DNA of 64,000 nt from Minisyncoccota bacterium (GCA_028718785.1 JAQULB010000003.1:8788-72787); one strand, 5' to 3'. Shown: positions 18,351 through 43,406, numbered from the stretch's first letter. Program-made: numbers and translations. Notes: a model not told the origin generated them from the sequence alone.

Positions 18351-18354
18351 TCTT

Positions 18355-19683: not shown

Positions 19684-19699
19684 AAGAGCTCTGATATAG

Positions 19700-21457: not shown

Positions 21458-21481
21458 TATTTAATAATAAAAAATTGAGAT

Positions 21482-21509
21482 AGGCGTCAAAATGACGCCT
21501 TTTATTTTT
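21482..21509. terminator. Bidirectional terminator between convergent genes
   Basis: aggcgtca-aaa-tgacgcct hairpin with an A-run upstream and a T-run downstream. Confidence 0.55.
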
Positions 21510-21536
21510 GGTTGATTTTACCATTTGAAGATGTCT

Positions 21537-22901: not shown

Positions 22902-23074
22902 GCTTTAATGGTAGCTTTCTTATTAGACAAAAAAAGTAAGGGGAAAGAGCCAGTTTGAGCATAAAATCGCCACACTAGACAAAATCAGATTTTTATTGAC
23001 CAATCAACAAAAACGTCTTATACTAACAGTGAACAGATAGTTCGTCAATCAACTATTAAAATTTTTATTACTTA

Positions 23075-24631
23075 ATGGGAATTATTATGTCAAAAGAAAA
23101 CAATAAAACTGAAGGCTTCGAGAGAACACTTTTTAAGGCGGCGGATAAACTCCGAAAAAATATGGATGCCGCCGAATATAAGCATATCGTGCTTGGGCTT
23201 ATCTTTCTTAAATACATCTCAGATTCGTTTGAGGACTTATACAAAAAATTAAAAACCGGTGAAGGCGACTATCAAGGCGCTGATCCAGAAGACCCCGATG
23301 AATACAAAGCGGAAAATATCTTTTTCGTTCCACACATAGCCCGCTGGTCTTATCTTCATTCCCACGCAAAACTCCCATCAATCGGCAATGACGTTGATAA
23401 TGCGATGGAAGCCATAGAAAAAGAGAACCCATCGCTCAAGGGAATCTTACCGAGAGTATATGCACGACCTAATCTTGATAAAGCCGCTCTTGGTGGACTT
23501 ATTGACTTAGTCGGGAATATTGCGATTGGTGATGAGGCAGCTAAAAGCAAAGACGTTCTCGGTAGGGTATATGAATACTTTCTCGGTGAATTTGCCAATG
23601 CTGAGGGCAAAAAGGGCGGACAATTCTATACGCCAAAGTCAATCGTTCGCATTATGGTAGAGATGATAGAGCCTTACAGTGGTCGTGTATATGATCCATG
23701 CTGTGGCTCTGGCGGCATGTTTATTATGAGTGAGCGATTCGTTGAAAGCCATCAGGGAAAAATTAACGATATTTCTATTTATGGGCAGGAGAGCAACCAG
23801 ACTACTTATCGTCTGTGCCGAATGAATCTTGCTATCCGTGGGATTGATGGATCACAAGTGAAATGGAATACGGAAGGCTCTTTCCTTAATGATACTCATA
23901 AGGACTTAAAAGCAGATTTTATTTTGGCTAATCCGCCGTTTAACGATAGCGATTGGTCGGGAGAACTTCTGCAAAAAGACCCTAGATGGCAATATGGCAT
24001 ACCTCCGGCGGGAAGTGCCAATTTTGCTTGGCTTCAGCACATGATCTATCATCTGTCGCCAAAAGGCGTGATGGCTTGCGTGTTAGCTAACGGTTCGCTT
24101 TCATCTCAGACTAATAACGAAGGGGAGATACGCAGACAGTTTGTTGATAACGATCTAGTGGATTGTATCGTCATGCTCCCAAAACAGCTTTTCTATAATA
24201 CTGGTATACCTGCTTGTATCTGGTTTATCTCCCGCAAGCGCGCAGGCAATGGCGACAGAAAGCGCACTGGTGAAATTCTGTTTATTAATGCCGATGAAGT
24301 TGGTTCTATGGAAGACCGAACCCATAAATTGTTTAATGATGAAGATATACAGAAAGTCGCTGGTACTTATCACGAGTGGAGAACTAAAAATGGGAAGTAT
24401 GAGGATATAAAGGGATTTTGTAAGTCCGTTAAGCTTGAAGAAATACAGAAGCATAATTACATTCTTACTCCGGGGCGATATGTCGGTATAATGGACGAAG
24501 AAGACGATGGCATACCCTTTGAGGAGAAAATAACGGAATTAACCGGGAAACTTAAAGTGCAAGTAACGGAAGAAAAGAGACTAAACGAGAAAATAAAAGA
24601 GAGTCTGGAAAGTATAGGATTTGAGCTTTGA
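23075..24631 (+). CDS. hsdM: Type I restriction-modification system methyltransferase subunit
   Basis: NPPF motif (ILANPPFNDSDW). SAM-binding FYTPKSIVRIMVEMIEP...YDPCCGSGGMF. Size 518 aa. Confidence 0.85.
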   Translation: MGIIMSKENNKTEGFERTLFKAADKLRKNMDAAEYKHIVLGLIFLKYISDSFEDLYKKLKTGEGDYQGADPEDPDEYKAENIFFVPHIARWSYLHSHAKLPSIGNDVDNAMEAIEKENPSLKGILPRVYARPNLDKAALGGLIDLVGNIAIGDEAAKSKDVLGRVYEYFLGEFANAEGKKGGQFYTPKSIVRIMVEMIEPYSGRVYDPCCGSGGMFIMSERFVESHQGKINDISIYGQESNQTTYRLCRMNLAIRGIDGSQVKWNTEGSFLNDTHKDLKADFILANPPFNDSDWSGELLQKDPRWQYGIPPAGSANFAWLQHMIYHLSPKGVMACVLANGSLSSQTNNEGEIRRQFVDNDLVDCIVMLPKQLFYNTGIPACIWFISRKRAGNGDRKRTGEILFINADEVGSMEDRTHKLFNDEDIQKVAGTYHEWRTKNGKYEDIKGFCKSVKLEEIQKHNYILTPGRYVGIMDEEDDGIPFEEKITELTGKLKVQVTEEKRLNEKIKESLESIGFEL

Positions 24632-24668
24632 TTTTGTGGCAAATTTTATTTTGAGGAGTTGAGCGATT

Positions 24669-25016
24669 GTGTTAACTAAAACGAAAAATTCAAAACAAAT
24701 AGAGCATTTGGCATTTAGGCTATCAAGTATATTGATTGAAAAAAGTGAAAACCAACTGGAAGATTACGACTTTTCTTGGCTAGACGTTTTTACCAAAAAA
24801 GGTAAAGAGGACTTCAAAAGCCAGCTATATCAAGCCATATCAAAATCAATAGATACTGGTGATTGGTCTTTTGTGGAAGAGATAATAGATTCTTGGTATG
24901 AAACTGCCGAGATTAAATCAAACAAAAGCCTAATGAGAAGGATCAAAAAAGGTAGCGAAGAAGCAAGGCGAGGAGAATCTAAAAGTTGGGAAGAATTTCA
25001 AAAAGAACTAGAATAG
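24669..25016 (+). CDS. Putative antitoxin partner of the downstream RelE/ParE-like toxin
   Basis: Small acidic ORF overlapping the toxin ORF by 31 bp. No clear DNA-binding motif recognised. Confidence 0.3.
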   Translation: MLTKTKNSKQIEHLAFRLSSILIEKSENQLEDYDFSWLDVFTKKGKEDFKSQLYQAISKSIDTGDWSFVEEIIDSWYETAEIKSNKSLMRRIKKGSEEARRGESKSWEEFQKELE

Positions 25017-25285
25017 AGTTTTCATCTCAAGCACAAAGGGATTGGAAAAAGCTGAAAAAGAAGATCGGGAAAGATGCAGAATCAGACTTTAACAAGTCTA
25101 TTGAGGCTATAGCAAATAATCCGTTAAGCGGAAAACCGCTACAAGAAAACTTATCAGGTCATTATGGGTTCAGATTTGGCGGGCATTATAGGATCGTGTA
25201 TGAAATTCTAGAGGATGATAAAGGAAAATTCGTTTCTATATGTGCGGTTGATGACAGGAAAAACATATACAGGAAGCGTTTATAA
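24986..25285 (+). CDS. RelE/ParE-family type II toxin
   Basis: IEFSSQAQRDWKKLKKKIGK...LSGKPLQENLSGHYGFRFGGHYRIVYEI matches the RelE/ParE consensus (kpL.g.l.g.yrlRvGdYRiiY). The exact start is uncertain. Confidence 0.6.
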   Translation: MGRISKRTRIEFSSQAQRDWKKLKKKIGKDAESDFNKSIEAIANNPLSGKPLQENLSGHYGFRFGGHYRIVYEILEDDKGKFVSICAVDDRKNIYRKRL

Positions 25286-25303
25286 AATTGGGCAAAAATA
25301 ACT

Positions 25304-26563
25304 ATGACATCTAAAAATACACAGCAGATACTGACTGGATGGGAAGAAGCCACTTTGGGGGATTATATTTCTATTAAGCATGGCTTTGCATTTAAGGGAG
25401 AATATTTCTCCGAACAGGAAAATGAAAATGTATTATTAACGCCGGGAAATTTTAATATTGGAGGAGGATTTAAAGCTGATAAATTGAAGTATTATATAGG
25501 CTTGTTTCCAGAAGAATACATTTTGCATGCCGGCGATTTAATAGTTACAATGACTGATCTAAGTAAAGATGGTGATACTCTAGGTTATCCTGCAAAAGTC
25601 CCGCATTATGAAAATAAAAACTTTTTACATAATCAACGAATAGGGCTTGTTCAATTCAAACGCAAGGATCTTGATAGAGACTTTTTATACTATCTGATGT
25701 GTACAAGAAATTACCAAAAAAATATTGTAAATTCTGCATCAGGAAGCACTGTACGGCATACGTCACCCGATAGGATTAAAGAATATAAGTCTTTATTTCC
25801 ATCTTTTCCCGAACAACGAGCTATTGCGTCCGTGCTTTCTGCTTTTGATGATAAGATTGAACTTTTACGGGAGCAGAATAAGACGTTGGAAAGTATCGCC
25901 CAAGCACTATTCAAGCGATGGTTTGTGGATTTTGAGTTCCCTAATGAGCAAGGCAAGCCCTATAAATCAAGCGGTGGCAAAATGATTGACTCTGAATTGG
26001 GAGAAATCCCAGATGGGTGGAAAGTAGGGGGATTGAGGGATATTATAAATATTTATGATTCTAGGCGTATACCATTATCAAGCGAGCAGAGAGCAAAAAG
26101 AAAAGGAAAATATCCATACTATGGGGCTACTGAGGTTATAGATTATATTGATGATTATTTATTTGAAGGCATTTATCTTTTACTTGCCGAAGATGGCTCT
26201 GTTATAGATGAAGAAGGATTTCCTGTTCTGCAATATGTTTTTGGACAGTTTTGGGTCAGTAACCATGCTCATGTTATACAAGGTAAGCAAGACATATCAA
26301 CTGAATATCTTTATCTTCTTTTTAAGCAAACCCCGGTTTCTGGGATTATTACAGGCGCGGTACAATTAAAAATAAACCAAGAAAATCTATTATCACTAGA
26401 AGTTATCATACCAGAAAAGCAAACCTTAAAAGTATTCAATAGTCTTATGGATTCTATTTTCTCTAAGGTTAGAGCTAATATTCTTCAAATTCAGACTCTT
26501 TTTCAACTCCGAGATACTTTATTACCAAAGCTTATGCGTGGTGAAGTGAGAGTGAAGCATTAA
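25304..26563 (+). CDS. hsdS: Type I restriction-modification system specificity subunit (two target-recognition domains)
   Basis: Position between hsdM and hsdR. Repeated conserved spacer-like segments (…LFKRWFVDFEFPNEQG… and …LPKLMRGEV…). Size 419 aa. Confidence 0.75.
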   Translation: MTSKNTQQILTGWEEATLGDYISIKHGFAFKGEYFSEQENENVLLTPGNFNIGGGFKADKLKYYIGLFPEEYILHAGDLIVTMTDLSKDGDTLGYPAKVPHYENKNFLHNQRIGLVQFKRKDLDRDFLYYLMCTRNYQKNIVNSASGSTVRHTSPDRIKEYKSLFPSFPEQRAIASVLSAFDDKIELLREQNKTLESIAQALFKRWFVDFEFPNEQGKPYKSSGGKMIDSELGEIPDGWKVGGLRDIINIYDSRRIPLSSEQRAKRKGKYPYYGATEVIDYIDDYLFEGIYLLLAEDGSVIDEEGFPVLQYVFGQFWVSNHAHVIQGKQDISTEYLYLLFKQTPVSGIITGAVQLKINQENLLSLEVIIPEKQTLKVFNSLMDSIFSKVRANILQIQTLFQLRDTLLPKLMRGEVRVKH

Positions 26564-26573
26564 GGTTTGAATC

Positions 26574-27419
26574 ATGGCAAATATGTCAAATAATGATAAA
26601 ACAAAGCTTGAGGCTCTGTTCGGAATGCGCAGCGGGTATGTCTTGGATTTTTCAGGCAACACTTTCCAAGATTTTATCCATGACAGCACTGGTTTAGATA
26701 TTTTTGATTCGAAGTATAATCATTTTAGTGGTTCTAAGGCAAATAGGCTTCGTGCTTTTTGGCAAAAGGAATCAGATAACATAGTTGGGAAATTAATTGC
26801 AGACCTATTAGAATATTGGAAAACACAAAAGGAAGTAAAAGGTAATGAAATAGAGGAAATTGAGCAAAAGCTTTATGGCGATTGCATAAATATTTCAAAA
26901 AGATTACTCGGTGAAAGACAAGAGTATATCGATCAGCAAAATGTTACCGAAGATGATTTTCTCAATAAGGAATTCCAAGAAATATCTTTAGAGAAACTCG
27001 GTTTAGAAAGTGTATTTACTAATGTATTGAATCAGAGAATGGATGAAATAAAGAGGTGTCTGGGTGCAAAAGCATCTTTGGCTGCGATTTTCCTATGTGG
27101 AAGTATACTTGAAGGTATATTACTGGGTTTTGTGATAAAGAAACCAGAAGAATTCAATCGAGCAATCCTTAGTCCTAAAGATAAAAATGGCAAAGTGTTA
27201 CAATTTCATGAATGGAAGCTAAGTAGTCTTATAGATGTTTCCCATGAAGTAGGTTTACTTGGGGATGATGTAAAGAAGTTTAGTCATGCCCTACGCGAAT
27301 TTAGGAATTATATCCATCCATACCAACAAGCTAGTTCAGGGTTCAATCCTGATGGGCATACTGCCAAAATATGTTGGCAAGTACTCAAGGCTGCGATTAG
27401 CGATTTATCTAAGGTATAA
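26574..27419 (+). CDS. HEPN-like (Abi-type RNase-like) protein embedded between hsdS and hsdR
   Basis: C-terminal HALREFRNYIHPYQQ resembles the HEPN R-x-x-R-N-x-x-x-H motif of Abi_2-like proteins. It sits in the position that anticodon nucleases occupy in prr-type loci. Confidence 0.35.
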   Translation: MANMSNNDKTKLEALFGMRSGYVLDFSGNTFQDFIHDSTGLDIFDSKYNHFSGSKANRLRAFWQKESDNIVGKLIADLLEYWKTQKEVKGNEIEEIEQKLYGDCINISKRLLGERQEYIDQQNVTEDDFLNKEFQEISLEKLGLESVFTNVLNQRMDEIKRCLGAKASLAAIFLCGSILEGILLGFVIKKPEEFNRAILSPKDKNGKVLQFHEWKLSSLIDVSHEVGLLGDDVKKFSHALREFRNYIHPYQQASSGFNPDGHTAKICWQVLKAAISDLSKV

Positions 27420-27425
27420 TCATTT

Positions 27426-30400
27426 ATGACCAAAATATTTGAATCTGACATCGAAAAATTGGTATGCGAACTCCTCGGAGAACAGGGCTACACTTACCTT
27501 TCTCCAGAAGCCCAAGAAGCCGAACGCCAAAGTCTAGGTGATGTTTTGCTATTGAATCGCCTCAAAAATGCTATTGATAACATAAATCCCAAAATACCAC
27601 AAGAAGCGAAAGAACAAGCCCTCCGACAAGTCCGCAATCTCACAACTCAAAACTTGATAGACAATAATGAGTCCTTCCATCGAATGTTCACCGAAGGGGT
27701 AGAGGTTGAGTATATGGGCGAATATGGCATAAAAGGCGATAAAGTTTGGCTGATTGATTATGATAATACTGAGAATAATGAGTTTTTGGTCTGCAATCAG
27801 TTTACAGTCATGGAGAACAACATTACCAAACGCCCTGATGTTGTTTTGTTTATTAATGGTTTGCCACTTGTGGTTATTGAACTAAAGAATCCCGCCGATG
27901 AGAACGCAACCGTACATAAAGCATTTACTCAGCTTCAAAATTATAAAAACGCCATCCCGAGCCTTTTTCATTACAATAGCATTTTAGTTGCTTCTGACGG
28001 CTTTGACGCTACCGCAGGCACGATCTCATCTGATTTCTCAAGGTTCTTGGCTTGGAAATCAAGCGATGGCTCAAAAGAGGACAGCATGACCATTCCACAA
28101 ATTGAAACGCTCATCAAAGGGATGCTGAAAAAAGAGACGTTGCTTGACCTGATCCGTCAATTTATCGTGTTTGAAAAATCCAGAAAAGAGGATCTAGAGA
28201 CAGGGCTAACTTCGGTTGTCTCCATCAAGAAAGTTTCCGCTTATCATCAATATTTCGCAGTTAATAAAGCTGTTAGCTCAACTATCCAATCCACAAGTGA
28301 ATATGGTGACAGAAAAGCAGGTGTAGTCTGGCACACACAGGGAAGCGGAAAATCGCTTTCCATGGTGTTTTATACTGGAAAGGTAGTTTTGGCGCTTAAT
28401 AATCCGACTATCGTTGTAATAACCGACAGGAACGACCTTGATGACCAGCTTTTTGATACTTTTGCCAACTGCAAACAGCTATTAAGGCAGGACCCGGTTC
28501 AGGCGGAAAATAGAGAACACCTGAAAAGCTTATTGAAAGTTGCCGGCGGAGGGATCGTGTTTACCACGATTCAGAAATTCTTTCCTGAGGATGGTTCTAG
28601 TAGTTATGATCTCTTATCAGAAAGAAAGAACATTGTGGTTATCGCCGATGAGGCGCACCGAAGCCAATATGGCTTTGGCGCAAAAACGATCTATGACAAA
28701 AATAATGGTGTAAGGACGACTTATGGATTCGCTAAATACTTGAGAGATGCCCTGCCGAAAGCCTCTTTTATTGGTTTTACAGGCACACCTATCGAGAAAG
28801 AGGACGCTTCCACACCGGCGGTATTTGGCAATTACATTGATATTTACGATGTAGCTAGGGCAGTAGAAGATGGGGCGACTGTTCGCATTTACTATGAATC
28901 AAGGCTTGCTAAAGTCCACCTAAAGCCAGAGGAGAAAGCGAAGCTTGATGAAGAGGTAGAATCTATCACTGAAGGTGAGGAAAGCACAGCTAAAGAGAAA
29001 GCAAAGGCAAAATGGGCGCAACTTGAAGCTATTGTTGGACATAAAGACAGGTTGCGTATTGTTGCTGGTGACATTATAGACCATTTTGAGAAACGACAGG
29101 AAGCCTTTGATGGAAAAGGCATGATCGTCTGTATGAGCCGAAGGATTGCAGTTGAACTGTATCAGGAAATCATCAAGCTAAGACCAGATTGGCACGACAA
29201 GGACAAGAAAAAGGGAGCGATTAAGGTGGTAATGACTTCCGCTTCTTCCGACCCCGAAAGTTGGCAGATGCACAATACTACCAAGCAGGATAGAAAAGAG
29301 ATCGGCGAACGGTTTAAAGACCCTAACGATCCTCTGAAGCTCGTTATTGTCCGTGATATGTGGCTGACTGGATTTGATGTGCCTTGCTTACATACGATGT
29401 ATGTTGATAAGCCCATGCGTGGACACAATTTAATGCAGGCTATCGCTAGGGTTAATCGTGTTTTCAAGGATAAACCGGGCGGACTTGTAGTTGACTATAT
29501 AGGGATTGCGTCAGATTTGAAGATGGCTTTGGCAACTTATGCCGCAAGTGGAGGACAAGGCTCACCGACCCTTGACCAAGAAGAAGCTGTGGCAACAATG
29601 CTTGAGAAATACGAGATTGTCGTTCAGATGTTCGATCAGTTTGATTATACAAAGTATTTTTCAGCGACGACTCAACAGAAGCTCACTATCATTTTAGAAG
29701 CACAGGAATATATTTTAAGCTTAGAAGATGGCAAAAATAGGTTCATAAAGCAGGTCAATCTATTATCCAAAGCATTTGCCCTTTCCGTTCCACATCATAA
29801 AGCGATGGATATTAAAGATGAAATAGGGTTCTTCCAAGCGATAAAAGCCCGATTAATAAAATTTGAAACGACCGGAACTGGCAAATCCGACCAAGATATT
29901 GAAACAGCTATAAGGCAGATTGTGGATAGAGCAGTTGTAACCGAGGGGATCGTTGACATATTTGATGCGGCAGGTATTAAAAAGCCTGATATTTCCATAC
30001 TTTCTGATGAATTTTTGGCAGAGATTAAGGACATGAAGCGAAAGAACATTGCCTTGGAACTTCTGAAAAAGATTCTCAATGATGAGATTAGACTGCGAAT
30101 GAGAAAGAACTTTATCCAAAGTAAAAAGCTTTCAGAAATGCTCGAAAATGCCATAAAAAGGTACCAAAATAATCTTTTAACGACCGCTCAGGTGATCGAA
30201 GAGCTTATAAAGCTGGCTAAGGAAATAAGGGAATCGGACATGCGTTTGCATGAATTGAACCTTTCCGAAGACGAGATCGCATTTTATGACGCTTTATCTA
30301 ATAACGACAGCGCCAAAAAGGTTTTAGGCGATGACGCACTTCGGGATTTAGCAAGGCTTTTGGTCCAAAAAGTGAAGGCGAACACTTCAATAGATTGGAC

Positions 30401-30545
30401 TATAAAAGAAAGCATTCAAGCGAAGCTTCGGGTCATTGTCCGCCGAACACTACGCCAATACGGTTATCCACCGGATCAACAGTTATTAGCTACTGAGAAT
30501 GTGTTGAAACAGGCAGAACTTTTCGCGGATGATTGGAGTGATTAG
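27426..30545 (+). CDS. hsdR: Type I restriction enzyme R subunit (helicase-nuclease)
   Basis: 1039 aa. SF2 motifs HTQGSGKS (Walker A) and [12 protein letters not shown] (DEAH). N-terminal nuclease region. Confidence 0.85.
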
Positions 30546-30664
30546 CTAAAACCTTTTTGTTCTAATAATAACGTCGGATTGATAATACAAATTCATCAGA
30601 AAATAATGGTTGAAAGATTTATCTTAGTATAATCACATTCTTAATAATTAAGGATTGATATAAC

Positions 30665-31819
30665 ATGCATAATAATTCACAGACTATAAAGCCTCGAGTT
30701 TTTGTGAGTTCTGTTCTAGAGGGTTTTAAAGAATACCGAGAGGTAGCCCGTCAGTCTATAATTAATATTGGAGGAGAGCCGATACTTGTTAATGAGGACT
30801 TTCCATCGTTAATAAGTTCATCAAGGAATGTTTGCTTGGATGCAGTTGATAGCGCAGATGCTCTTGTTGTGATTGTTGGTGAACGCGGTGGATGGAAAAC
30901 CCCATCAGGAAGATTAGTTATTGAAGAAGAATACGATCGAGCACGTTATAAAAAACTGCCCATACTTGTTTTCATTCAAGATATAAAACGTGAGCCAGAG
31001 GCACAGAGATTTACGAATGAAATATCTGATTACATTGATGGGTTATTCCGGGTTACTTTTCGATCACCAGTAGAACTTAAGGCTGAAATAGAAAAGGCTC
31101 TAAAATCATTATTCCCCGTCTTAAAGGTGAAAGCTATGGATGATCATTTATTGATACAATTTTTAAAAAATCCTTATTCTGTCGCAAATGAAGCAAGCGT
31201 GCGTTTTATTATTGCTCCGGAACGAGATGAAGAGGTTATCGATCCTGTTGTTCTTGGGTCAGAAGATTTTGTCGAAACAATACTTGAGTTAGGGCATTCA
31301 AAGAAAGTCAGAATTTTTGATTATTTAAGACCAAAAAAGCATTGGATTGATGGGCAATCGCTATTTATTCATCAATTTGACCCATCAGGATTAAGAAAAG
31401 AAACTGTTAACGAAGTACGTCTGGAAATCTTAGAATCAGGTTTAATGATCATTGATTCAAATGTTACCTGTCGCGTGATTAGAGGGCAACTACATTCTTT
31501 GTTAGACTCTTGTGTTGTTGCAGAGGAAGATATTAGAGCAGTATTAAATACTTGCTTTCAATTTACAGGTGCTTTGTTTGATTCTATCGATCAGTTTAAA
31601 AGACATAATCGCTTTATGTATAATGCTGCATTAGTGAATATAGGAACTCGTGTATTAGTCAAGGAACCCAAAGAGCAAAATTCCTATTCTCTCAACATGC
31701 CAGGTCATAATCAACCCATTATTGCATTTGATAGTCCACGTTTATTGATACGATCTGATCTTATGCTTCCTAAAAATGAGATAGAAAGAGCGATTGTTAT
31801 TTTTTCACGCAAAATCTAA
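30665..31819 (+). CDS. DUF4062-like N-terminal domain protein (defence-island-type), with a C-terminal domain of unknown function
   Basis: N-terminal RVFVSSVLEGFKEYREVARQSIINIGGEPILVNEDFPS...DALVVIVGERGGWKTPSG fits the DUF4062 pattern (kVFiSSt...Re...i...gh.pv..e.f.a...cD..v.iig.rYG). Confidence 0.4.
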   Translation: MHNNSQTIKPRVFVSSVLEGFKEYREVARQSIINIGGEPILVNEDFPSLISSSRNVCLDAVDSADALVVIVGERGGWKTPSGRLVIEEEYDRARYKKLPILVFIQDIKREPEAQRFTNEISDYIDGLFRVTFRSPVELKAEIEKALKSLFPVLKVKAMDDHLLIQFLKNPYSVANEASVRFIIAPERDEEVIDPVVLGSEDFVETILELGHSKKVRIFDYLRPKKHWIDGQSLFIHQFDPSGLRKETVNEVRLEILESGLMIIDSNVTCRVIRGQLHSLLDSCVVAEEDIRAVLNTCFQFTGALFDSIDQFKRHNRFMYNAALVNIGTRVLVKEPKEQNSYSLNMPGHNQPIIAFDSPRLLIRSDLMLPKNEIERAIVIFSRKI

Positions 31820-31864
31820 GAATCCCATCTGTTTTGAGAACAACCCGGAGGTTATTGAGTCATT

Positions 31865-32572
31865 ATGATGATTAAAGATATTTATCCACCAATTGAAACA
31901 GCTATGGAATTAGAGCCAGAAGAATTGGCTCCTTTTGTGTTAAAAGATTTAGCAGATCAAAGGAGACTTAATCGGCATAATTTTACTTTAGGAAATAGTC
32001 CTGATTTTATCGAATATGCTGGTAATTATCGGGAGGAATTTTGTAAAAGACTTATGGAAGCTTGGATTTGGCTTGAAAAGGAAATGTTTATTGCACCAAT
32101 GCCGGGCGGTGGTGGCACGGATGAATTCTTTATTACTCGCAAAGGTAAAAAGATTCTTGATGAGCAGAATTTTGAATCATATAAAAAAGCGTCATTACTG
32201 CCATCAGAGAATCTTGACCCAATTTTAGTAAGAAAAGTAAAACCATTGTTTATAAGAGGAGACTATGACACCGCAATATTTCAAGCCTTCAAAGAAGTTG
32301 AAATAAGGGTTAGAGATAAAGCAGGATACACAGATAATGAAATAGGCGTTGCTCTTATGAGAAAGGCTTTTAAGCCAGATAATGGACCTCTTGCAGACCA
32401 GTCTTTAGAAGCTAGTGAAAAGGAAGCGATAGTTGCTCTTTTTGCGGGATCTATAGGCAAGTTTAAGAATCCATCAAGTCATAGAGATGTAGAATATACT
32501 GATCCGGGTGAGGTTGTCGATATAATTCATATAGCGAACCAGTTATTACGAATTTGTGATCGCTGTAGATAA
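31865..32572 (+). CDS. Hypothetical protein, possibly HEPN-like (TIGR02391/Ymh-like) at the C-terminus
   Basis: C-terminal ...FAGSIGKFKNPSSHRDVEY is weakly reminiscent of the HEPN RN..H motif (K replaces R). Low certainty. Confidence 0.3.
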   Translation: MMIKDIYPPIETAMELEPEELAPFVLKDLADQRRLNRHNFTLGNSPDFIEYAGNYREEFCKRLMEAWIWLEKEMFIAPMPGGGGTDEFFITRKGKKILDEQNFESYKKASLLPSENLDPILVRKVKPLFIRGDYDTAIFQAFKEVEIRVRDKAGYTDNEIGVALMRKAFKPDNGPLADQSLEASEKEAIVALFAGSIGKFKNPSSHRDVEYTDPGEVVDIIHIANQLLRICDRCR

Positions 32573-32652
32573 AATTTATGAAATGTTTTTGGAGAGCTTT
32601 CAAAAGAAATAACAGTATCAAATATTTATTTTATAGTTAGGTTTTAAGGAAA

Positions 32653-34788
32653 ATGCGGAAATCCGAAAAAATGTGTACTAATGAGATAATCAATGCTATT
32701 GAAGATTTGGCGAAGGAACCAGGATTTATATATTCCTTGGCAATAATATTGCAGCGAGACCAATTTTTAGACCCCGAAGAAGTAGCTGATATCAACTGGC
32801 ATGAACGGCTAATTTTCCAAGAGTTATCTTTTTTGGTTGGTCTAATGGTTAAAAATAAAATAGATTATTCTGTAATACCAACAGAAAACACTTTAACTAA
32901 TCAAATCAATAGGACTTATGAATTATTTCAGAAGTTGCATGAAAATCATTTGGCAATATTTGCGGATAAGCTTTCGAAGAAATATAAACAAAGTGTAGAG
33001 GATCAGAATGCTGAGGATAATTATAAAGATTTCATGGGAAACGGGGAATTAATGGCAGAGCCAATTTTTTATGGTGATTCTGGTGCCTATGATTTTCAAT
33101 ATTTGGAATTTGCACAGAAGAAATATAAAAATGACGAAACATGGATATATAAAAATAAAGGTATTACACTATCCATAGTGTCCAATATATATGCAACGTT
33201 AAAGAAACTTAGCGAAGAGAGGTGGCAGAATTTCCAAATACCGGAAAAATTTGAGGAACTCTGCAAGTCATCTCTATCAGTTTTTTGCTTTAACCAAAAA
33301 GATTTGGAATATTTTGATGTTGATGCTGTTAAAAATTTCATCAAAGCTTTTTCGGTAATTCCTGGTACTGTTAATCAAAATCTGAATTCTGTTGGGATGT
33401 ATAATGCTATTGATTCTCATCCTATAGTTACTCTTGCAGAGAATCTTTATTTTTTACCTGTGGGATTCAATTTTTCGCGATCCATCTACGAAAGTCCTTT
33501 TTACTGGATGAGTGACGATGATCTATATAGAGACACTGCTTTTAATAATAGAGGCGAGTCAGCTGAAAATATTGTCTATGAAATTTTGGAAGATATCTTT
33601 GGGAAGGAAAATGTCTACAAAGAAGTAAAGGTTTGTAGAAACAGGCAAGATTTAACAGATATTGACGTATTGGCCATAGCTGGCAATAAAGCCGTTATTG
33701 TGCAGGCGAAATCAAAAAAGCTTACGGAGCTATCTAAAAAGGGAGATGAGGCAAGGTTAAGAGCAGACTTCAAAGAAGCTGTTCAAAAGGCTTATAATCA
33801 AGGTTTGATCTGTCGTTCAGCAATTATAGACAAGAAAAATGATTTAGTAACAGAAGATGGTAAGAAACTTTATCTCAGTGAATTTATTGACGATGCCTAT
33901 ATTATCTGTATAACACTGGATCACTACCCAGCAATAACTCATCAATCGGATATTTATCTAGAGAAACAGCCACAGGATCCATACCCTTTAGCAATGAGTA
34001 TTTTTGATTTAGACATTATTGCTTTTTACTTAAAAGATCCTTTTGATTTTTTATACTATATAAGGCAAAGAGTTGCGTTAAGCTCTTATTATGAAGCGAA
34101 TTCGGAATTAGTGTTGTTAGGGAGTCATCTCAGACAAAAGCTATTTCCAAATCCTGATGTAGATAGGGAAGCTTTGGACGATGGATTTGCTCAACTAATA
34201 GATGCAAATTTTCCAGCTATGCGTGGTTATCAGCCAAAAACAAGTGCGGTAGAGAAATTACATCATCAATGGAAGAATGAGAAGTTTGAAAAACTTATTA
34301 ACCAGATAAAGGCAATAAAACAGCCGGGTCTTACAGATGCCCTGTTTTTCTTATATGATTTGGCTGGTAAGGGAGCTGATGATCTTATCTCCTGGATCGA
34401 AAAAACCATAGATAAAACCATACAAGATGGACGAATGCATTCTTTATCTATGGGTTTTGAAAACGGGAAAAGTGGAGTTTCTTTTATCTGTTTGCCAAAT
34501 TTTTCGGAAAAAATAAAAACACAGTTGGTGAGTTTTGCTTTAGCTAAAAAATATAAAACAAAGGCTGATATGTGGCTTGGTCTATGCTCTATTGCAGGGA
34601 GTTCTAATATTGTCGATGCTGTAACTTTTAACAATCAACCATGGGTAGAGGATAGCAACCTAGAAGAAATTTCTAAAATTGCTCTAAAAGCTGGTGTAAG
34701 AGCTGATTTGGATATTAAAAAAATCGGCAGAAATGATCCATGTATTTGTGGAAGCGGAAAAAAATTCAAGAAATGTTGCGGTAGATGA
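32653..34788 (+). CDS. Large protein with a PD-(D/E)xK / NERD-like nuclease motif and a C-terminal SEC-C zinc-binding motif
   Basis: ESAENIVYEILEDIF...LTDIDVLAIAGNKAVIVQAKSKK carries an E...D...QxK nuclease-like signature. C-terminal NDPCICGSGKKFKKCCGR matches the SEC-C motif. Confidence 0.45.
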   Translation: MRKSEKMCTNEIINAIEDLAKEPGFIYSLAIILQRDQFLDPEEVADINWHERLIFQELSFLVGLMVKNKIDYSVIPTENTLTNQINRTYELFQKLHENHLAIFADKLSKKYKQSVEDQNAEDNYKDFMGNGELMAEPIFYGDSGAYDFQYLEFAQKKYKNDETWIYKNKGITLSIVSNIYATLKKLSEERWQNFQIPEKFEELCKSSLSVFCFNQKDLEYFDVDAVKNFIKAFSVIPGTVNQNLNSVGMYNAIDSHPIVTLAENLYFLPVGFNFSRSIYESPFYWMSDDDLYRDTAFNNRGESAENIVYEILEDIFGKENVYKEVKVCRNRQDLTDIDVLAIAGNKAVIVQAKSKKLTELSKKGDEARLRADFKEAVQKAYNQGLICRSAIIDKKNDLVTEDGKKLYLSEFIDDAYIICITLDHYPAITHQSDIYLEKQPQDPYPLAMSIFDLDIIAFYLKDPFDFLYYIRQRVALSSYYEANSELVLLGSHLRQKLFPNPDVDREALDDGFAQLIDANFPAMRGYQPKTSAVEKLHHQWKNEKFEKLINQIKAIKQPGLTDALFFLYDLAGKGADDLISWIEKTIDKTIQDGRMHSLSMGFENGKSGVSFICLPNFSEKIKTQLVSFALAKKYKTKADMWLGLCSIAGSSNIVDAVTFNNQPWVEDSNLEEISKIALKAGVRADLDIKKIGRNDPCICGSGKKFKKCCGR

Positions 34789-35501: not shown

Positions 35502-35853
35502 ATGACTAAAAAAGAGACTAGAGAATCTGCGATGGATTTTGTAGAAGAACATGAGAGGAAGCGAGGTACGTTTATACGAAGGGTGGATAAAGATAAGGCA
35601 GAAGTTGGGATAGATATTTTATCTTCGGACAGGAGGATCGAGGTTAAGGGAAGAACAGGTACTGATAACTTTGTTCAGATGAATGATAAAAATGTGGAAT
35701 CCTGAAAACAACATGATAATTTTTGGTTATATATAGTTCATTTTGACAAATATGGTAATCCTAAATTAGCGACTTTGTCAAAAGAGCAGGTCTTGCAAAG
35801 ATGTAAGCCTCTTGAATGGTGGGAAATTCCTTTCAGAAAAGCCGATTTTAAGT
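35502..35853 (+). pseudogene. DUF3883-like (PD-(D/E)xK) domain gene interrupted by an in-frame TGA
   Basis: ...DRRIEVKGRTGTDNFVQMNDKNVES*KQHDNFWLYIVHFDKYGNP... The frame continues 49 codons past the TGA to the TAA at 35853. TGA is used as a stop elsewhere (hsdM, 36128 ORF), so recoding is unlikely. Confidence 0.35.
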
Positions 35854-36127: not shown

Positions 36128-37330
36128 ATGACTACAAACGTAAACAATCCCTTTTCTGCGAGTGCTTCGGTACTTGGTTATATGTATCAAATTCGGTATG
36201 CCTTACTGGAAAGTTTAAAACGATTACGAAAGAGTGAGGAATTCACCGTTTCTATTGAGACGTTAGACGATGTCGCTTTCGAGCCAGAAGGGGAACCAAT
36301 CGAATTATTGCAAACGAAACATCATATTAATCAATCCGCTGACTTAACGGACGCATCCCTAGACTTGTGGAAGACAATTAGGATATGGTGTGAAGGCATA
36401 ATTAATAATACTATTCCAAACGATGCCTTGTTTTTTCTGATCACCACAGCACAAGCGGCTGGAGGCAGTGCTGCTTTCTACCTCAAAACAGGTGAACCAC
36501 AGGACGCAGATAAAGCTCTTGAGCGATTAGTATCCACTGCTGAATCATCGACAAGTTATTCTTTACATCCTGCCTTTACCGCGTTTAAAAGATTAAATTA
36601 TGAGCAAAGAAAACAACTGGTTCAAAATGTGATTTTGGTTGATTGTGCCCCAACAATCACAGACCTTGATGTTGCGCTCAAAGAAGCGGTGTTTGGCTTT
36701 ACTGACAAACAATTCCTTGATTCATTTCTTCAGAGATTTGAGGGTTGGTGGTATCGTCGGTCAATAAAGCATTTAGCTGATGATCAAACTCAGCCAATAC
36801 TCAGCGAAGAATTAGAAGCCGAGGGGTCCCGCCTGCGAGAACAGTTCAAATTGGATTCCTTACCTATTGACGATGACATCATGTCTGCCAGCGTAGACGC
36901 TTCTGGATATGAAAATAAGGTATTTGTTCAACAGCTACGCCTTATTGAAATTGGCAACCCACGTATCCTACATGCAATTCGGAATTACTTCAGAGCCTTT
37001 GAGCAAAGATCACGATGGATACGAGAAGACCTTATTCTCGTTGGGGAACTTGATCGCTACGAAGACAAATTGGTGGAGGAATGGGAAATCTACTTTGAGC
37101 AAATGCGAGATGAAATTGGAGACGACGCAACAGAGCAGACCAAGAAAGAAGCAGCCCAAGCTCTATATAAATGGGTGGAGACCGGTTGCCATCATACAAT
37201 CCGACAAGGCGTTACAGAGGCGGCTATTTCACGCGGTTCTTATCAGATACTTTCTGACTGTCAAAAAGTCGGTTGGCATCTCAACTTTGCTGAACGCATA
37301 CGGCAGATTTTAGAGAGTAAGGAGACCTGA
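36128..37330 (+). CDS. Lamassu/ABC-3C effector-like protein (LmuA/DdmA-like, possible Cap4-type nuclease domain)
   Basis: First gene of a tightly coupled trio. N-terminal GYMYQIRYALLESL and ETLDDVAFEPEGEPIELLQTKHH are reminiscent of DUF4297/Cap4-type nuclease N-termini. Its stop TGA is 3 bp before the next ATG. Confidence 0.45.
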   Translation: MTTNVNNPFSASASVLGYMYQIRYALLESLKRLRKSEEFTVSIETLDDVAFEPEGEPIELLQTKHHINQSADLTDASLDLWKTIRIWCEGIINNTIPNDALFFLITTAQAAGGSAAFYLKTGEPQDADKALERLVSTAESSTSYSLHPAFTAFKRLNYEQRKQLVQNVILVDCAPTITDLDVALKEAVFGFTDKQFLDSFLQRFEGWWYRRSIKHLADDQTQPILSEELEAEGSRLREQFKLDSLPIDDDIMSASVDASGYENKVFVQQLRLIEIGNPRILHAIRNYFRAFEQRSRWIREDLILVGELDRYEDKLVEEWEIYFEQMRDEIGDDATEQTKKEAAQALYKWVETGCHHTIRQGVTEAAISRGSYQILSDCQKVGWHLNFAERIRQILESKET

Positions 37331-37333
37331 TTT

Positions 37334-37831
37334 ATGAAGCCTTGGTCCGAACGTTCCATTGAGGAAGCCAACCTTTTGAATCCAGCCTTCTGTTGCGCAG
37401 CTCTGGCAATGTCAATTGCTGGATATTCCGGTGTTAATGATGCAGGTATGCCATATCCATTGACCTTTATGGTTTTGCCAATCGTTCTTCACAAACAAAC
37501 ACGAGAAAGTCTTCCGCCATCTACGAGGACATCGCTTGCGGTTTGGATGCAAAATAACGCCGATGCCAAGGTTCTTTATGCGGAAAGATTGTTGTCACTA
37601 AAACCTTATACTCGAGAAGCAATCCAATTCGGACTGCTTTATGATTGGATTGCGCTACGTCATGGTTGGTTAGTGCAAACTACCTTTGAGGAGTCTATAT
37701 CAGCTCGAATACTTCAAAATCTCGATAATGAAGCAAAGGATTGTGTGTCTCGTGCAAAGCTTGTCGGGAAATGGTTTGCTTTGGCAGGATCGGCTCAAAC
37801 TGTAATGAATTTGTGGGGAATCCGTATATGA
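37334..37831 (+). CDS. Small middle component (LmuC/DdmB-like) of the trio
   Basis: 165-aa ORF wedged between the effector and ATPase genes. Its stop overlaps the next start (ATGA). Confidence 0.4.
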   Translation: MKPWSERSIEEANLLNPAFCCAALAMSIAGYSGVNDAGMPYPLTFMVLPIVLHKQTRESLPPSTRTSLAVWMQNNADAKVLYAERLLSLKPYTREAIQFGLLYDWIALRHGWLVQTTFEESISARILQNLDNEAKDCVSRAKLVGKWFALAGSAQTVMNLWGIRI

Positions 37832-39783
37832 GTTTTCAAATATCGGATATTATTCTTTACGGCTTTAATGGACAGAAACGCGTAATCACTCTCCGTACCG
37901 GACAGTTGAATATCATCACAGGTGCATCTAAAACTGGCAAAACGGCACTTATTGAGATCATTGACTACTGTCTTGGTAGCGATGAATGTAGAATCCCCGC
38001 GGGAATTATTCGCAAAGCTGTTGAGTGGGTTGGTGTACGTCTCCAGATAGAAGCAGGTCAGGCATTTGTTGCACGGCGTTTGCCAGGTCCTGGTCGGAAT
38101 GCCTCTTCCGATATTTTCTATGATGTTCGTAACTTCATTGAAATACCTGAGCGAGTTGAATTAAGGCAAACAATTAATGATGTAGCATTAAGAGCTATTC
38201 TCTCTCAATATGCAGGAATAGGAGAAAACATTCATTATCCACCGGAAGGAAATAATAGACGTTCGTTGACAGCCAATATCCGTCATGCACTTTACTTTGC
38301 ATTCCAGCAACAAGCCGAGGTATTAAACAATCGCCTCTTGTTTCATAATCAGGGCGAACCATTTATCCCACAGGCTATCAAGGATATACTTCCGTATTTT
38401 CTTGGAGCTGTTGACGACGACTATGTTGCTAAGGTGACTAAACTACGAGACCTTCGATATAAACTCAGGGGATTGGAACGTAGGCTTTCTGAGTATGAAG
38501 CAGTCCGGGGGGAAGGAGTATCTCTTGCGCAATCTCTGCTTGTCGAGGCAATGGACATCGGGTTGCCTGGAGCGGAAATGCCCGTTGAAGATTGGAATGA
38601 ATGCATTGAGATATTGAAACGTATTCAAAGCCAACCTCCGGAACCAGAAGACGAACTCGCATCTGAAAACAATGCCTACAACCAGTTACGAAGGACAAAG
38701 TTGGAATTGGAAAGCGAGTTGCAACGAGTCAAATCTCAGATGCAGGCAGCAGAAGCATTGAACTCAGAAGGACAAGGATATTCTCATGAAGCACAAGCCC
38801 AATTGCATAGACTTCGGAGTATTGAACTTTTTGAAGAATCTGAACAAGGCGTTCCAAGATGCCCATTATGTGAATCTGAACTTTCTAATGTTTCGTTACC
38901 AGGATTAGAGCAAATGCGCCAGTCTGCCCAATGTTTAGATTCGCAGATTCGGACAATTGAAGATCGTTCTCCGCAAATGAATGAAGTAGTGAGAAAGTTA
39001 CGTGGACGATTCGATGATGTAAAACGGCGTTTACACGAAAACCGTGAAGAAATGGATGCAATCCAAGCTTCGGATCGTCGCCTTCAAGGCATGCGTGACC
39101 GTTCATCTCGACGTGCTCATATTCTTGGTCGAATCAGCCTTTACCTTGAAAGCCTTCCTCATATTGAGGATACAAGTGAACTAAAGCTGGAAATCGCGGC
39201 ATTGCAGAGCAAAATCAGTGGGCTTGAAAAAGAATTAAGCGATGCCACTGTGCAAGAACGGTTAGATTCAATCTTGTCAATCTTAAGCCGTGATATGAGT
39301 CAATGGGCATGTGAGTTGCAGTTAGAACACTCAAAATTCCCATTGCGACTCGATTTAAGGAAACTAACAGTGGTCGCTGATACAGCAGATGGTCCCATCC
39401 CCATGAATCAAATGGGAAGTGGAGAAAATTGGGTTGGCTATCACTTGATCGCGCATTTTGCCTTACATAAATGGTTTGTGAAGAGAGGTCGACCACTGCC
39501 CCGCTTTATTTTTATTGACCAACCATCCGAAGTGTATTTCCCTGCGGATCAAGAAGTGAATGGTGGCAGAATAGACGGTGAGAATGAAGACAGGAAAGCT
39601 GTTGCACGTATGTATAAATTAGCACTAGACGTTGTAAATAATCTGTCTCCAGAATTCCAAATCATAATGACAGACCATGCCGACCTCGCTGAAAAATGGT
39701 TTCAAGATTGTATTATAGAGCGTTGGAGGGACGGAATTAAATTGGTACCTGAATCATGGATACCAGGAGATACCAAAATTTGA
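37828..39783 (+). CDS. SMC/RecF-like ABC ATPase with a long coiled-coil insert (LmuB/DdmC-like, DUF3732-type)
   Basis: N-terminal Walker A ITGASKTGKTALIEI. About 300 aa of coiled coil (...LESELQRVKSQMQAAEAL...EIAALQSKISGLEKELSD). C-terminal Walker B/D-loop RFIFIDQPSEVYFP. Start reassigned to the ATG at 37828, which overlaps the upstream stop. Confidence 0.6.
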   Translation: MSFQISDIILYGFNGQKRVITLRTGQLNIITGASKTGKTALIEIIDYCLGSDECRIPAGIIRKAVEWVGVRLQIEAGQAFVARRLPGPGRNASSDIFYDVRNFIEIPERVELRQTINDVALRAILSQYAGIGENIHYPPEGNNRRSLTANIRHALYFAFQQQAEVLNNRLLFHNQGEPFIPQAIKDILPYFLGAVDDDYVAKVTKLRDLRYKLRGLERRLSEYEAVRGEGVSLAQSLLVEAMDIGLPGAEMPVEDWNECIEILKRIQSQPPEPEDELASENNAYNQLRRTKLELESELQRVKSQMQAAEALNSEGQGYSHEAQAQLHRLRSIELFEESEQGVPRCPLCESELSNVSLPGLEQMRQSAQCLDSQIRTIEDRSPQMNEVVRKLRGRFDDVKRRLHENREEMDAIQASDRRLQGMRDRSSRRAHILGRISLYLESLPHIEDTSELKLEIAALQSKISGLEKELSDATVQERLDSILSILSRDMSQWACELQLEHSKFPLRLDLRKLTVVADTADGPIPMNQMGSGENWVGYHLIAHFALHKWFVKRGRPLPRFIFIDQPSEVYFPADQEVNGGRIDGENEDRKAVARMYKLALDVVNNLSPEFQIIMTDHADLAEKWFQDCIIERWRDGIKLVPESWIPGDTKI

Positions 39784-41324: not shown

Positions 41325-43406
41325 GTGAGAGTTATCAGAGACCCTATTCATAAATACATTTCGTTAAGTGATTTGGAACTTGAAATTATTGAAACACCTT
41401 ATTTTCAGCGTCTGCGTTATATCAAACAAAATGCAACTGCTTATCTTACTTATCCTACTGCTGTTACTAGCCGATTCGATCATAGTTTAGGCGTAATGCA
41501 TATTGCAGGTAGGATGATTAGTTCCGCTCTGGAATTGAGTGCTCCAAAAGATATTAAAAATTTCTTTATTAAATGCAAGGGTGATTTTGGCAAAGAATAT
41601 AGCAAATTAAAAGATGAGCAACTTAAATATATAATTATTTCTTTAGTTCGCTTACTTGGATTATTGCATGATATTGGTCATCTGCCTTTTTCCCATACGG
41701 GTGAAGATGCGATAGATTTTCCTGATTTTTTAAGGTTGATATATAGAGAAGATGAGCATAAGGAAATAATATATTTGCATAACCAATATGGATTGCATTT
41801 GCATGAATATAATACCCTCAAAATTATTGAGAGCGAGTCTATGCGTGGAAAATTTCAATCCGTTAAAGAAGACTTGTTAGGAAAGAAATTCAAGGACAAA
41901 TGTTATATATATGATTTAATACTAATGACTTTAGACCCAAGAAAAAGGAGAAAATTTAGTGTATTTGAGACATTAGTACAAATTGTTAGTTCCAATCTGG
42001 ATGCTGATCGTGCTGATTTTTTGCTTCGTGATGGAACCATCAGTGGAGCTGGTTTCGGTGCATATGACATAGATCGTTTTATAACAACACTTAGGTTATT
42101 CAATCGCAAGGAAACAAAGGAATTCCTAATACGCCCATTATTTACTGGAATCAGTGCTATAGAGACGATGCTAATTGAACGCTATAAACTATATAAGTGG
42201 CTATATTTTCACCACTATGTTGTTTTTACTGATATGGCTGTAGAAAAACTGATTAAATCAATGCTTAAAGCAGTAGTGATAGATTCAGATTTTGCTGAAA
42301 GATTGGATATTGATATTAAACGGTTTCATTATGCTAATTTTGTTAAAGATGGTATATTTCTTGATGATACTTATATTTGGCATAAATTCAACAAATTCCT
42401 ATATTTGTTAGAAAACGAGCGAAAAATAGCAAGAGAAAATTCCAATGATTTGTCCAAAGGACTTTCATTATTCACTATAAATTTAGATGTGCAAAACATT
42501 ATAAATGAGTTAAATTCTGGGCAATTAAAAAGCCTACGGGAGCAATTTAAAGATGGAGATATTTTATCTTCCAATAGTATAAAAGTCTATACTCCTATAG
42601 AATTAAAAGAAACATGGTTGGTAATTCATGAAAGTGATGAGGAAACAGAATACAAAGTTTTGTGTGTAATCAAAAAAGAAGAGGATAAGTTATGCGTTTA
42701 CGATCCAAGATACAAACTGATCCCTCTCGAAAAGCGAGATAAAGATATAGCAGTAAGTCTTCTCCGTATCGTTTTACACAGGCGTAAGTTGGGTAGTGCA
42801 TTGTGGAAGGACACCCAGCAATATAAAGAGGTTAATAGAGATATAAAAAGTGTGATTAGGGATGCTTTCGAAAAGAAATACTGCAAAAAATATCCTAGTC
42901 AATCAGAAACAAGCTTTGATGATGAGTTTGAGGAAAGGATTAAAGAAGGTACATTTATACTTAACTATTTTGCGGAATTTTTTCCTTCCGACAAGAAGGA
43001 ATTGATTAATGATGTTGAAGAAAACTGGCTTAATAAAACTAACCAAGACTGCCACTTATCCATTCAAATTAAGCGATTCAAACCATACGGGGATTATGAA
43101 ATTATAACAAGAAAAAACGATTTAACTACGCTTAATGAGTGTTCTGAAATCGTGCAAGGGTTGGATGATGCTTGGAGTAAAGATGTTCATATGTATTTAT
43201 TTTTATTCTTTTTCGACAATTTTACTAGAGTGGCAACTGGAATAAAGATGGGGCAAATAAAGAAAGCTATGATAAAGACTTTCGCTAAATCGCTAGGTAG
43301 CTGGTACAAAGATGCCAAAGCAATGAAAAACGTTTTGTGGAAAACAGACATGTTACCTAAAGAAACAAATACCCAAATTAAGGATAAAGCAAAAATTGAA
43401 GATTAA
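41325..43406 (+). CDS. HD-domain dNTP/dGTP triphosphohydrolase-like protein with a long C-terminal extension
   Basis: RFDHSLGVMHIAGRM ... LLHDIGHLPFSHTGE is the dGTPase-type HD signature. At 693 aa it is much longer than housekeeping Dgt. Confidence 0.6.
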   Translation: MRVIRDPIHKYISLSDLELEIIETPYFQRLRYIKQNATAYLTYPTAVTSRFDHSLGVMHIAGRMISSALELSAPKDIKNFFIKCKGDFGKEYSKLKDEQLKYIIISLVRLLGLLHDIGHLPFSHTGEDAIDFPDFLRLIYREDEHKEIIYLHNQYGLHLHEYNTLKIIESESMRGKFQSVKEDLLGKKFKDKCYIYDLILMTLDPRKRRKFSVFETLVQIVSSNLDADRADFLLRDGTISGAGFGAYDIDRFITTLRLFNRKETKEFLIRPLFTGISAIETMLIERYKLYKWLYFHHYVVFTDMAVEKLIKSMLKAVVIDSDFAERLDIDIKRFHYANFVKDGIFLDDTYIWHKFNKFLYLLENERKIARENSNDLSKGLSLFTINLDVQNIINELNSGQLKSLREQFKDGDILSSNSIKVYTPIELKETWLVIHESDEETEYKVLCVIKKEEDKLCVYDPRYKLIPLEKRDKDIAVSLLRIVLHRRKLGSALWKDTQQYKEVNRDIKSVIRDAFEKKYCKKYPSQSETSFDDEFEERIKEGTFILNYFAEFFPSDKKELINDVEENWLNKTNQDCHLSIQIKRFKPYGDYEIITRKNDLTTLNECSEIVQGLDDAWSKDVHMYLFLFFFDNFTRVATGIKMGQIKKAMIKTFAKSLGSWYKDAKAMKNVLWKTDMLPKETNTQIKDKAKIED

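Follow-up and report, generated by a model that had tools for sequence, protein, structure and literature searches.

Three co-oriented genes downstream of hsdR in a Candidatus Pacebacteria mobile element are probably independent single-gene cassettes of a variable cargo hotspot

Do three co-oriented genes that follow hsdR in a bacterium of the candidate phyla radiation (CPR) make up one defense system, or are they independent pieces of cargo? The question is raised by positions 30665 to 34788 of a 64,000-nucleotide (nt) stretch of DNA, here called the window, from a Minisyncoccota bacterium (Candidatus Pacebacteria; GCA_028718785.1 JAQULB010000003.1:8788-72787), in which a preliminary description had proposed a single candidate system composed of a DUF4062-like protein, a small HEPN-like protein, and a nuclease-like protein with a SEC-C motif. 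The three open reading frames (ORFs) lie on the plus strand exactly where they had been placed: gene A (30665 to 31819) encodes a 384-residue DUF4062 protein, gene B (31865 to 32572) encodes a 235-residue HEPN protein of the Ymh/TIGR02391 family, and gene C (32653 to 34788) encodes a 711-residue protein with a NERD-like PD-(D/E)xK core and a SEC-C motif. The upstream neighbor of A is hsdR (27426 to 30545, plus strand), and the intergenic gaps of hsdR-A, A-B, and B-C are 120, 45, and 80 nt, respectively, which places the start of B 1.3 kb downstream of hsdR. Homologs of each of the three proteins number in the hundreds to thousands in public data and are conserved over their full length; thus, A, B, and C are real genes. 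The GC content falls from approximately 0.43 in hsdR to approximately 0.35 across A to C, with the shift in composition at the hsdR/A border. No terminator was predicted between the three genes, in a scan whose promoter and terminator counts equaled the shuffled expectation and which is uninformative overall. As set out below, the interval most probably holds three independent single-gene cassettes in a variable cargo or defense hotspot of an integrated mobile element, a reading to which we assign a probability of approximately 0.8.

The co-occurrence of the three families was assessed in 80 C loci (with 10-kb flanks) of GTDB species representatives that cover many bacterial phyla and two archaeal lineages; in 80 metagenomic A loci, in which the A homologs are 37 to 63% identical and 56 of which extend at least 900 nt downstream; and in 10 distinct B contexts, in which A and C were sought by family hidden Markov models (HMMs). 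The HMMs were built from 120 homologs per family, and the residue counts given below for A, B, and C are likewise based on approximately 120 homologs. In the C loci, single-sequence searches and HMMs both found no B (0/80) and only one A (1/80), which is located approximately 5 kb from C on the opposite strand (L010). According to the HMMs, none of the 80 A loci contains a B-family or C-family gene, and hence neither is a partner gene of A in that sample; A and C are also absent from all 10 B contexts. The two closest relatives of C on long contigs have neither A nor B nearby; one is located beside Bil-like, resolvase, and AbiEii genes, and the other is located among metabolic genes. The nearest neighbors of C, 146 in total, are spread over 105 Pfam families, none of which occurs more than three times, so C has no conserved partner. 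The neighbors of B in its contexts are equally varied: a PIN toxin-antitoxin pair with a 2667-aa gene, Eco57I with UvrD, two TIR_2 genes, an integrase with SLFN_AlbA_2 and a reverse transcriptase, a resolvase island, CBASS genes with a LexA-like gene, TrwB with PDDEXK_1 and DUF4238, and an OLD-like ATPase; two of the contexts are IMG/VR contigs. No common downstream partner of B was found among them, and the ORFs of 261 aa (L168) and 262 aa (L185) that follow B are unrelated to each other. The only other A-B pair that was observed is in a related version of this island that is 92% identical (L081 to L083) and in which C is replaced. In the loci sampled, therefore, A, B, and C are never adjacent together outside the window, and they do not form a conserved three-gene system; a lack of co-occurrence of this kind is what the preliminary description had itself named as refuting its proposal. 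Each of the three comes from a widespread family that normally occurs alone. PADLOC (2023 models) returned no system-level match for A, B, or C, and its matches were limited to weak Aga_HEPN and PD-Lambda-3_B matches for B and to the SEC-C tail for C. The preliminary description did not recognize the combination as a named system; that is correct, but for the reason that no system exists, and A by itself belongs to a defense family (Swarozyc/Evangelion) that was named in 2026.

Comparison with the closest loci shows how single genes of the interval are exchanged. In L081 to L083, the layout hsdM-ParDE-hsdS-ORF281-hsdR-A-B is the same as that in the window at 92 to 95% nucleotide identity, and the A and B proteins are 92% identical to those of the window. 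The nucleotide homology between the window and L081 spans positions 22925 to 32562, with the exception of the target-recognition regions of hsdS, and breaks at 32562, which is 10 nt before the stop codon of B. The position of C is taken by an unrelated gene of 1202 aa (L081 9610 to 13218, plus strand), a large cassette in the defense slot. A further group of loci (L084 to L086) carries an A homolog of 61% identity on the same backbone of TrwB and ParDE, without a Type I restriction-modification (R-M) operon, without B, and without C; TrwB, ParDE, and A are all that L084 shares with the window. In L185 (3309 to 10537), TrwB is followed by PDDEXK_1, a B homolog, the 262-aa ORF, DUF4238, and a resolvase. 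Since this locus is a site of the same kind with different cargo, the TrwB-adjacent type of hotspot seems to recur in related elements. The differences in cargo among L081 to L083, L084 to L086, and L185 therefore point to a cargo hotspot with exchange of single cassettes.

Protein A has the DUF4062 N-terminal region that had been noticed in it (Pfam DUF4062, residues 11 to 93, E = 1.2e-14). A total of 279 homologs were found, which are approximately 345 to 424 aa in length among the matches listed. In the AlphaFold2 (AF2) model (mean predicted local distance difference test [pLDDT] score = 84.9, predicted template modeling [pTM] score = 0.82), residues 11 to 150 (positions 30695 to 31114, plus strand) take the shape of a catalytic domain similar to TIR domains and nucleoside 2'-deoxyribosyltransferases (NDTs). 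Its Foldseek matches in the PDB are TIR-STING, the TIR-APAZ protein of SPARTA, the TIR domain of SARM1, and the NDT-type N-glycosidases DNPH1 and BcmB; the TIR-like fold of A is thus supported. In the alignment of homologs, F13 is kept in 117/117 sequences and both E88 and E89 in 120/120, and position 90 is Tyr or Phe. Residues 160 to 384 (31142 to 31816, plus strand) form a confidently modeled alpha/beta auxiliary (AUX) domain, for which Foldseek of the model gave no convincing PDB match; it is conserved across the A family, including a homolog on a Rhizobium plasmid, and is presumed to be the sensor. The Rhizobium protein is a full-length relative of A (99.8% probability) and is encoded by a solitary gene beside a PIN/XRE pair. 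The profile alignment of A with a DUF4062 protein of an Enterococcus plasmid is limited to the core (residues 6 to 106, including the E-Y motif, "LEY"), and the auxiliary domains of these two proteins are not homologous. A tblastn search of plasmids found no enterobacterial or staphylococcal relatives of A, and PHROG matches to A are confined to the DUF4062 core.

As shown in two preprints of 2026, the DUF4062 domain is a TIR-like NADase, and DUF4062+AUX proteins are single-gene abortive-infection systems (10.64898/2026.05.01.722283; 10.64898/2026.06.25.731849). Swarozyc (KpSwz) has the catalytic residue E97 and an auxiliary domain that binds the phage portal (10.64898/2026.05.01.722283), while F11, E87-Y88, W162, and the auxiliary region are needed in Evangelion (Eva01) (10.64898/2026.06.25.731849). 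Like Swarozyc and Evangelion (Eva01 to Eva04), A combines a DUF4062 core of the TIR/NDT fold with a C-terminal auxiliary region and is encoded by a solitary gene that is found in defense islands and on mobile elements. F13 and E88-E89-Y90 of A are the counterparts of F11 and E87-Y88 of Eva01 and of E97 of KpSwz, which are residues required for defense. The auxiliary domain of A is alpha/beta; the clades tested so far are marked by a helix-turn-helix/winged auxiliary domain (Swarozyc) and by a short one (Eva01). A differs from both systems in having a CPR bacterium as its host. Because the equivalent residues are kept and the auxiliary region is not common to the Enterococcus protein, A is considered a member of the DUF4062 defense superfamily with its own auxiliary domain. 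On this evidence, A appears to be a divergent new lineage of the DUF4062 TIR-like defense proteins, with a predicted NADase activity.

Protein B is indeed a small protein of the HEPN type, as had been suggested with a question mark. It matches Pfam Hypoth_Ymh (PF09509) at residues 116 to 229 (E = 2.8e-23, 82.5 bits against a cutoff of 25) and TIGR02391 (E = 3e-17, 62.8 bits against a cutoff of 39.45), and Ymh has been classed as a HEPN family that is found solo or fused and "in operon with R-M" (PMC3710099). Its N-terminal domain (residues 1 to 115) is conserved in the alignment of the family (A3) and gave no family match. Homologs of B number 1762, and those on the phage side are limited to two IMG/VR loci. 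At the position of the HEPN Rx4-6H motif, B has KNPSSH (residues 201 to 206, positions 32465 to 32482, plus strand), in which Lys replaces Arg, so that the canonical R-x4-6-H is replaced by K-N-x3-H. Across the family, position 201 is Lys in 118/120 homologs and Arg in 2/120, while the Asn is present in 120/120 and H206 in 119/120. B is thus predicted to be a HEPN RNase, with the caveat that the motif Arg is replaced. In line with the description of the Ymh family, B is small, occurs solo, and has its gene downstream of a Type I R-M operon; the ATPase and anticodon-nuclease architecture of R-M-linked HEPN effectors such as PrrC and RloC is absent from B. The R-M or defense genes near B are hsdR in the window and Eco57I, CBASS, OLD-like, TIR, DUF4238, and toxin-antitoxin genes elsewhere.

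Protein C carries both features that had been read from its sequence, a nuclease-like E...D...QxK motif and a C-terminal SEC-C motif. The latter, a metal-binding motif (CxC...CC; residues 693 to 711, positions 34729 to 34785, plus strand), is recognized by Pfam (E = 1.3e-9) and has profile matches in the PDB to the C-terminal zinc motifs of SecA and YchJ; C697, C699, and C708 are invariant in an alignment of 30 C homologs (A1). The match of C to Pfam NERD (17.2 bits) is below the gathering threshold of 22.1, the match to Card1_endonuc is weak, and two C homologs (P0019 and P0095) have a precomputed PF08378 match. Because NERD is matched below the threshold, the nuclease assignment rests on the conserved residues, the core of the model, and Foldseek. 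The AF2 model (pLDDT = 85.5, pTM = 0.85) consists of a helical N-terminal region, a PD-(D/E)xK core, a C-terminal alpha/beta region, and SEC-C, in that order. The core (residues 293 to 421, positions 33529 to 33915, plus strand) has an alpha-beta-beta-beta-alpha-beta arrangement, with helices at 293 to 316 and 366 to 393 and strands at 321 to 329, 332 to 343, 346 to 352, and 414 to 421. It contains E305, D336, D338, and Q351-x-K353; E305 is present in 99/120 homologs, and D336, D338, Q351, and K353 are present in 119 to 120 of the 120. The best fold match in the PDB is Upx (9wuf; Foldseek E = 1.2e-5, probability = 1.0, template modeling [TM] scores = 0.34 and 0.22), followed by the nucleases VC1899, Can2, and Card1, which supports the nuclease fold. 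The start of C is ambiguous: a second ATG (32671) is located 6 codons downstream of the ATG at 32653 that gives the 711-residue protein, and the NCBI protein identical to C is annotated from the second one and comprises 705 aa.

The E..D..(E/Q)xK residues on an alpha-beta-beta-beta-alpha-beta core are common to C, NERD, Card1, and Can2; in C, however, there is neither a CARF domain nor another sensor domain for cyclic nucleotides, and the flanking domains are unrelated. Similar to C, Upx is a stand-alone protein of bacteria and archaea in which large noncatalytic domains accompany a PD-(D/E)xK core (PMC13099982; PMC13601566). However, the core is central in the 711 residues of C, whereas Upx comprises approximately 1200 to 1270 aa in N-terminal, middle, and C-terminal domains (NTD-MD-CTD) with a C-terminal D/ExK core, and SEC-C is absent from the published descriptions of Upx (PMC13099982; PMC13601566). 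A sequence-level link between C and Upx was sought and rejected, as the C-family profile misses 9wuf at E <= 10 and C has no PADLOC Upx match. The possibility that the 1202-aa gene at the position of C in L081 is a relative of Upx or of C was likewise examined and rejected, as this gene has no match in Pfam, PADLOC, PHROG, or PDB sequences and no similarity to C. The SEC-C zinc motif is found as well in the lactococcal anti-phage protein Rugutis (PMC11381338) and in the tails of the PADLOC candidates PDC-S12 and E2, but this motif of approximately 20 residues is all that they have in common with C; Rugutis comprises 359 aa, with an N-terminal SEC-C and no nuclease core (PMC11381338).

The C family comprises 802 clusters at E <= 1e-30 in 1.84 billion representatives (approximately 800 clusters at 50% identity), and nearly all members are 650 to 780 aa in length. 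Its distribution is patchy and extends over many phyla, including archaea, and homologs are found on chromosomes and on 38 plasmids, 22 of which are conjugative. No viral relative of the fold was matched in BFVD at E <= 1e-3, PHROG matches to C are confined to the SEC-C motif, and a search of the literature found no paper on the family. C thus belongs to a large uncharacterized family and is the sole part of the trio with real potential for novelty; A and B belong to families already known. We tentatively propose that the C family could be a new single-gene anti-phage or anti-plasmid defense with a distantly Upx-like fold, in which a stand-alone PD-(D/E)xK nuclease with a SEC-C tail has repeatedly become associated with Type I R-M operons, beside them or within them, and may serve there as a second-line or modification-dependent nuclease; this is a plausible proposal that may well turn out otherwise.

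Several points weigh against the reading of the interval as three independent defense cassettes. The defense roles of B and C are predicted, and in B a Lys is found where the catalytic Arg of HEPN proteins is expected. Approximately half of the Pfam-matched nearest neighbors of C look like housekeeping genes. The sample of B contexts is small (n = 10), and one of these loci (L170) has two TIR_2 genes just upstream of B. Finally, because the A-B gap is 45 nt, no terminator is predicted within it, and the pair is kept in the 92%-identical relative, A and B may be cotranscribed in this lineage and have some functional interplay. The alternatives that can be built on these points are considered below.

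The alternative that survives best, which we regard as possible but doubtful, is that C is not a defense protein at all but a nuclease of mobile elements or of DNA repair that is in the island by chance. It would account for the many housekeeping neighbors of C, such as PfkB, aconitase, PdxA, and urocanase genes, and for the close relative that is located among metabolic genes, and it is consistent with the PADLOC models having matched nothing beyond SEC-C and with the lack of a paper on the family in our search. On the other hand, the patchy spread over phyla and the occurrence on conjugative plasmids argue against it, as does the recurrence of C beside R-M, MADS, DISARM, AbiE, Bil-like, and resolvase genes, and the best fold match in the PDB is itself a defense nuclease.

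A second alternative ties B, C, or both to the adjacent Type I R-M operon as accessories rather than autonomous modules: they would be second-line effectors comparable to PrrC/RloC, or C would be the Type IV-like nuclease of an "immigration control" cluster. The documented occurrence of Ymh HEPN genes in R-M operons (PMC3710099) is in its favor. R-M-type neighbors of C recur (Type IIG, 4; Type I methyltransferase, 3; MADS, 3; DrmD, 2), and a co-oriented Type I R-M system is found beside or around C in 8/80 loci from different phyla. In two of these, the C-family gene is located inside the operon: its stop overlaps the start of hsdS in L017 (10001 to 12301), and its start overlaps the stop of hsdS in L072 (9986 to 12097). 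The binomial P value for this association is 3e-6 to 2.5e-3 under background rates that are assumed, which also limits its weight. Moreover, approximately 90% of the C loci and most of the B contexts have no R-M nearby; in the window, A stands between hsdR and B and C, and the composition shifts after hsdR; and in L081, C is swapped out while the R-M genes are retained. We therefore consider a role as dedicated accessories unlikely; B and C could have a looser functional connection with R-M, which would be compatible with independent cassettes.

A two-gene module of A and B, in which the DUF4062 TIR-like enzyme would make a nucleotide signal or sense infection and the Ymh HEPN protein would act as the effector, with C as unrelated cargo, is less probable still. 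The precedent for such an arrangement is Thoeris, in which TIR-derived signals activate effectors, and the module would fit the short A-B gap, the retention of the pair in L081 to L083, and the B homolog in L170 that follows two TIR_2 genes. However, no B-family gene was found in the 80 A loci and no DUF4062 gene in the 10 B contexts, and in L084 the same backbone carries A but lacks B. The published DUF4062 systems are single genes whose product is ADP-ribose and not a signal, and B showed no domain known to bind signals, with Hypoth_Ymh as its sole Pfam match and an otherwise uncharacterized N-terminal domain. The weakest alternative, a three-gene system such as one in which the sensor or the source of a signal is TIR-like and the effectors are HEPN and nuclease proteins, is suggested by the orientation and close spacing of the genes, the lack of predicted terminators between them, and the defense-type domains in all three, and it is hardly tenable given the lack of co-occurrence in the 80 C loci, 80 A loci, and 10 B contexts, the presence of an unrelated gene in place of C in the 92%-identical relative, where A and B are retained, and the absence of a PADLOC system match.

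If A, B, and C are independent cassettes, each would act as an autonomous effector-plus-sensor protein within one island; we infer their enzymatic activities, triggers, and anti-phage roles as follows. By analogy with Swarozyc and Evangelion, A would be held inactive until its auxiliary domain detects a phage component, and the triggered protein would oligomerize, hydrolyze NAD+, and abort the infection. B would act as a metal-independent HEPN RNase, serving as an abortive or second-line effector. C would most likely degrade nucleic acid once activated, much as Upx and other single-protein sensor-nucleases do; alternatively, it might be an accessory or a Type IV-like partner of R-M systems.

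The defense setting that had been noted for the cluster is confirmed by the genes on both of its sides. Upstream, the Type I R-M operon (23075 to 30545, plus strand) comprises hsdM, a DUF6247/ParE pair, hsdS, a 281-aa ORF, and hsdR and is collinear with that of L081. The DUF6247-like antitoxin and ParE toxin genes (24669 to 25285, plus strand) are inserted between hsdM and hsdS, and the 281-aa ORF (26574 to 27419, plus strand), which has a weak match to DUF4145 (HEPN; E = 1e-3), is located between hsdS and hsdR; both insertions are kept in L081. Downstream, a complete ABC-3C system (36128 to 39783, plus strand) encodes a Cap4-like nuclease-CTD7 protein (400 aa), MC3 (165 aa), and a DUF3732 ABC ATPase (680 aa); it starts approximately 1.3 kb downstream of C and is separate from A to C. 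Between C and ABC-3C, a 67-aa ORF (35502 to 35705, plus strand) matches only part of the NOV_C (PD-(D/E)xK) domain (E = 1.7e-5) and probably represents what is left of a cassette that decayed or was displaced. A 693-aa HD-domain protein with a weak HD_assoc_2 match is encoded at the distal end (41325 to 43406, plus strand). It is followed by a truncated ComM/ChlI-like gene (43473 to 44180, minus strand), whose 234 aa correspond to the N-terminal part of such a protein (ChlI, Lon_C, and the start of Mg_chelatase). This gene adjoins the housekeeping gene nusA, and the insertion of the island may have its right-hand boundary here.

The mobile-element backbone is located to the left of the R-M operon. 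The gene for a TrwB/TraG-like coupling protein (21537 to 22901, minus strand) is the backbone marker beside the cargo region, and its counterparts in L084 and L185 adjoin different cargo. The backbone also includes a RepA-like initiator (5056 to 6486), a second coupling-protein-like gene of a type IV secretion system (T4SS) (8834 to 10636), and a tyrosine integrase (17061 to 17744, minus strand), together with amidoligase and GATase genes. The region from 5056 to 22901 has the appearance of a conjugative or plasmid-like element that is integrated in the CPR (Pacebacteria) genome.

The new three-gene system does not stand, and follow-up work that would have been wasted on it is thereby avoided. 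The locus instead provides a clean case of cassette turnover in a TrwB-adjacent cargo hotspot on a CPR mobile element, in a group whose defense biology has barely been explored. With A, the DUF4062 NADase defense proteins, the function of which was established only in 2026, would gain a divergent lineage that has a sensor domain of its own. The novelty of the interval rests with C, whose NERD-like/SEC-C family is widespread and unnamed and has a reproducible link to Type I R-M, which makes it a reasonable candidate for defense screening.

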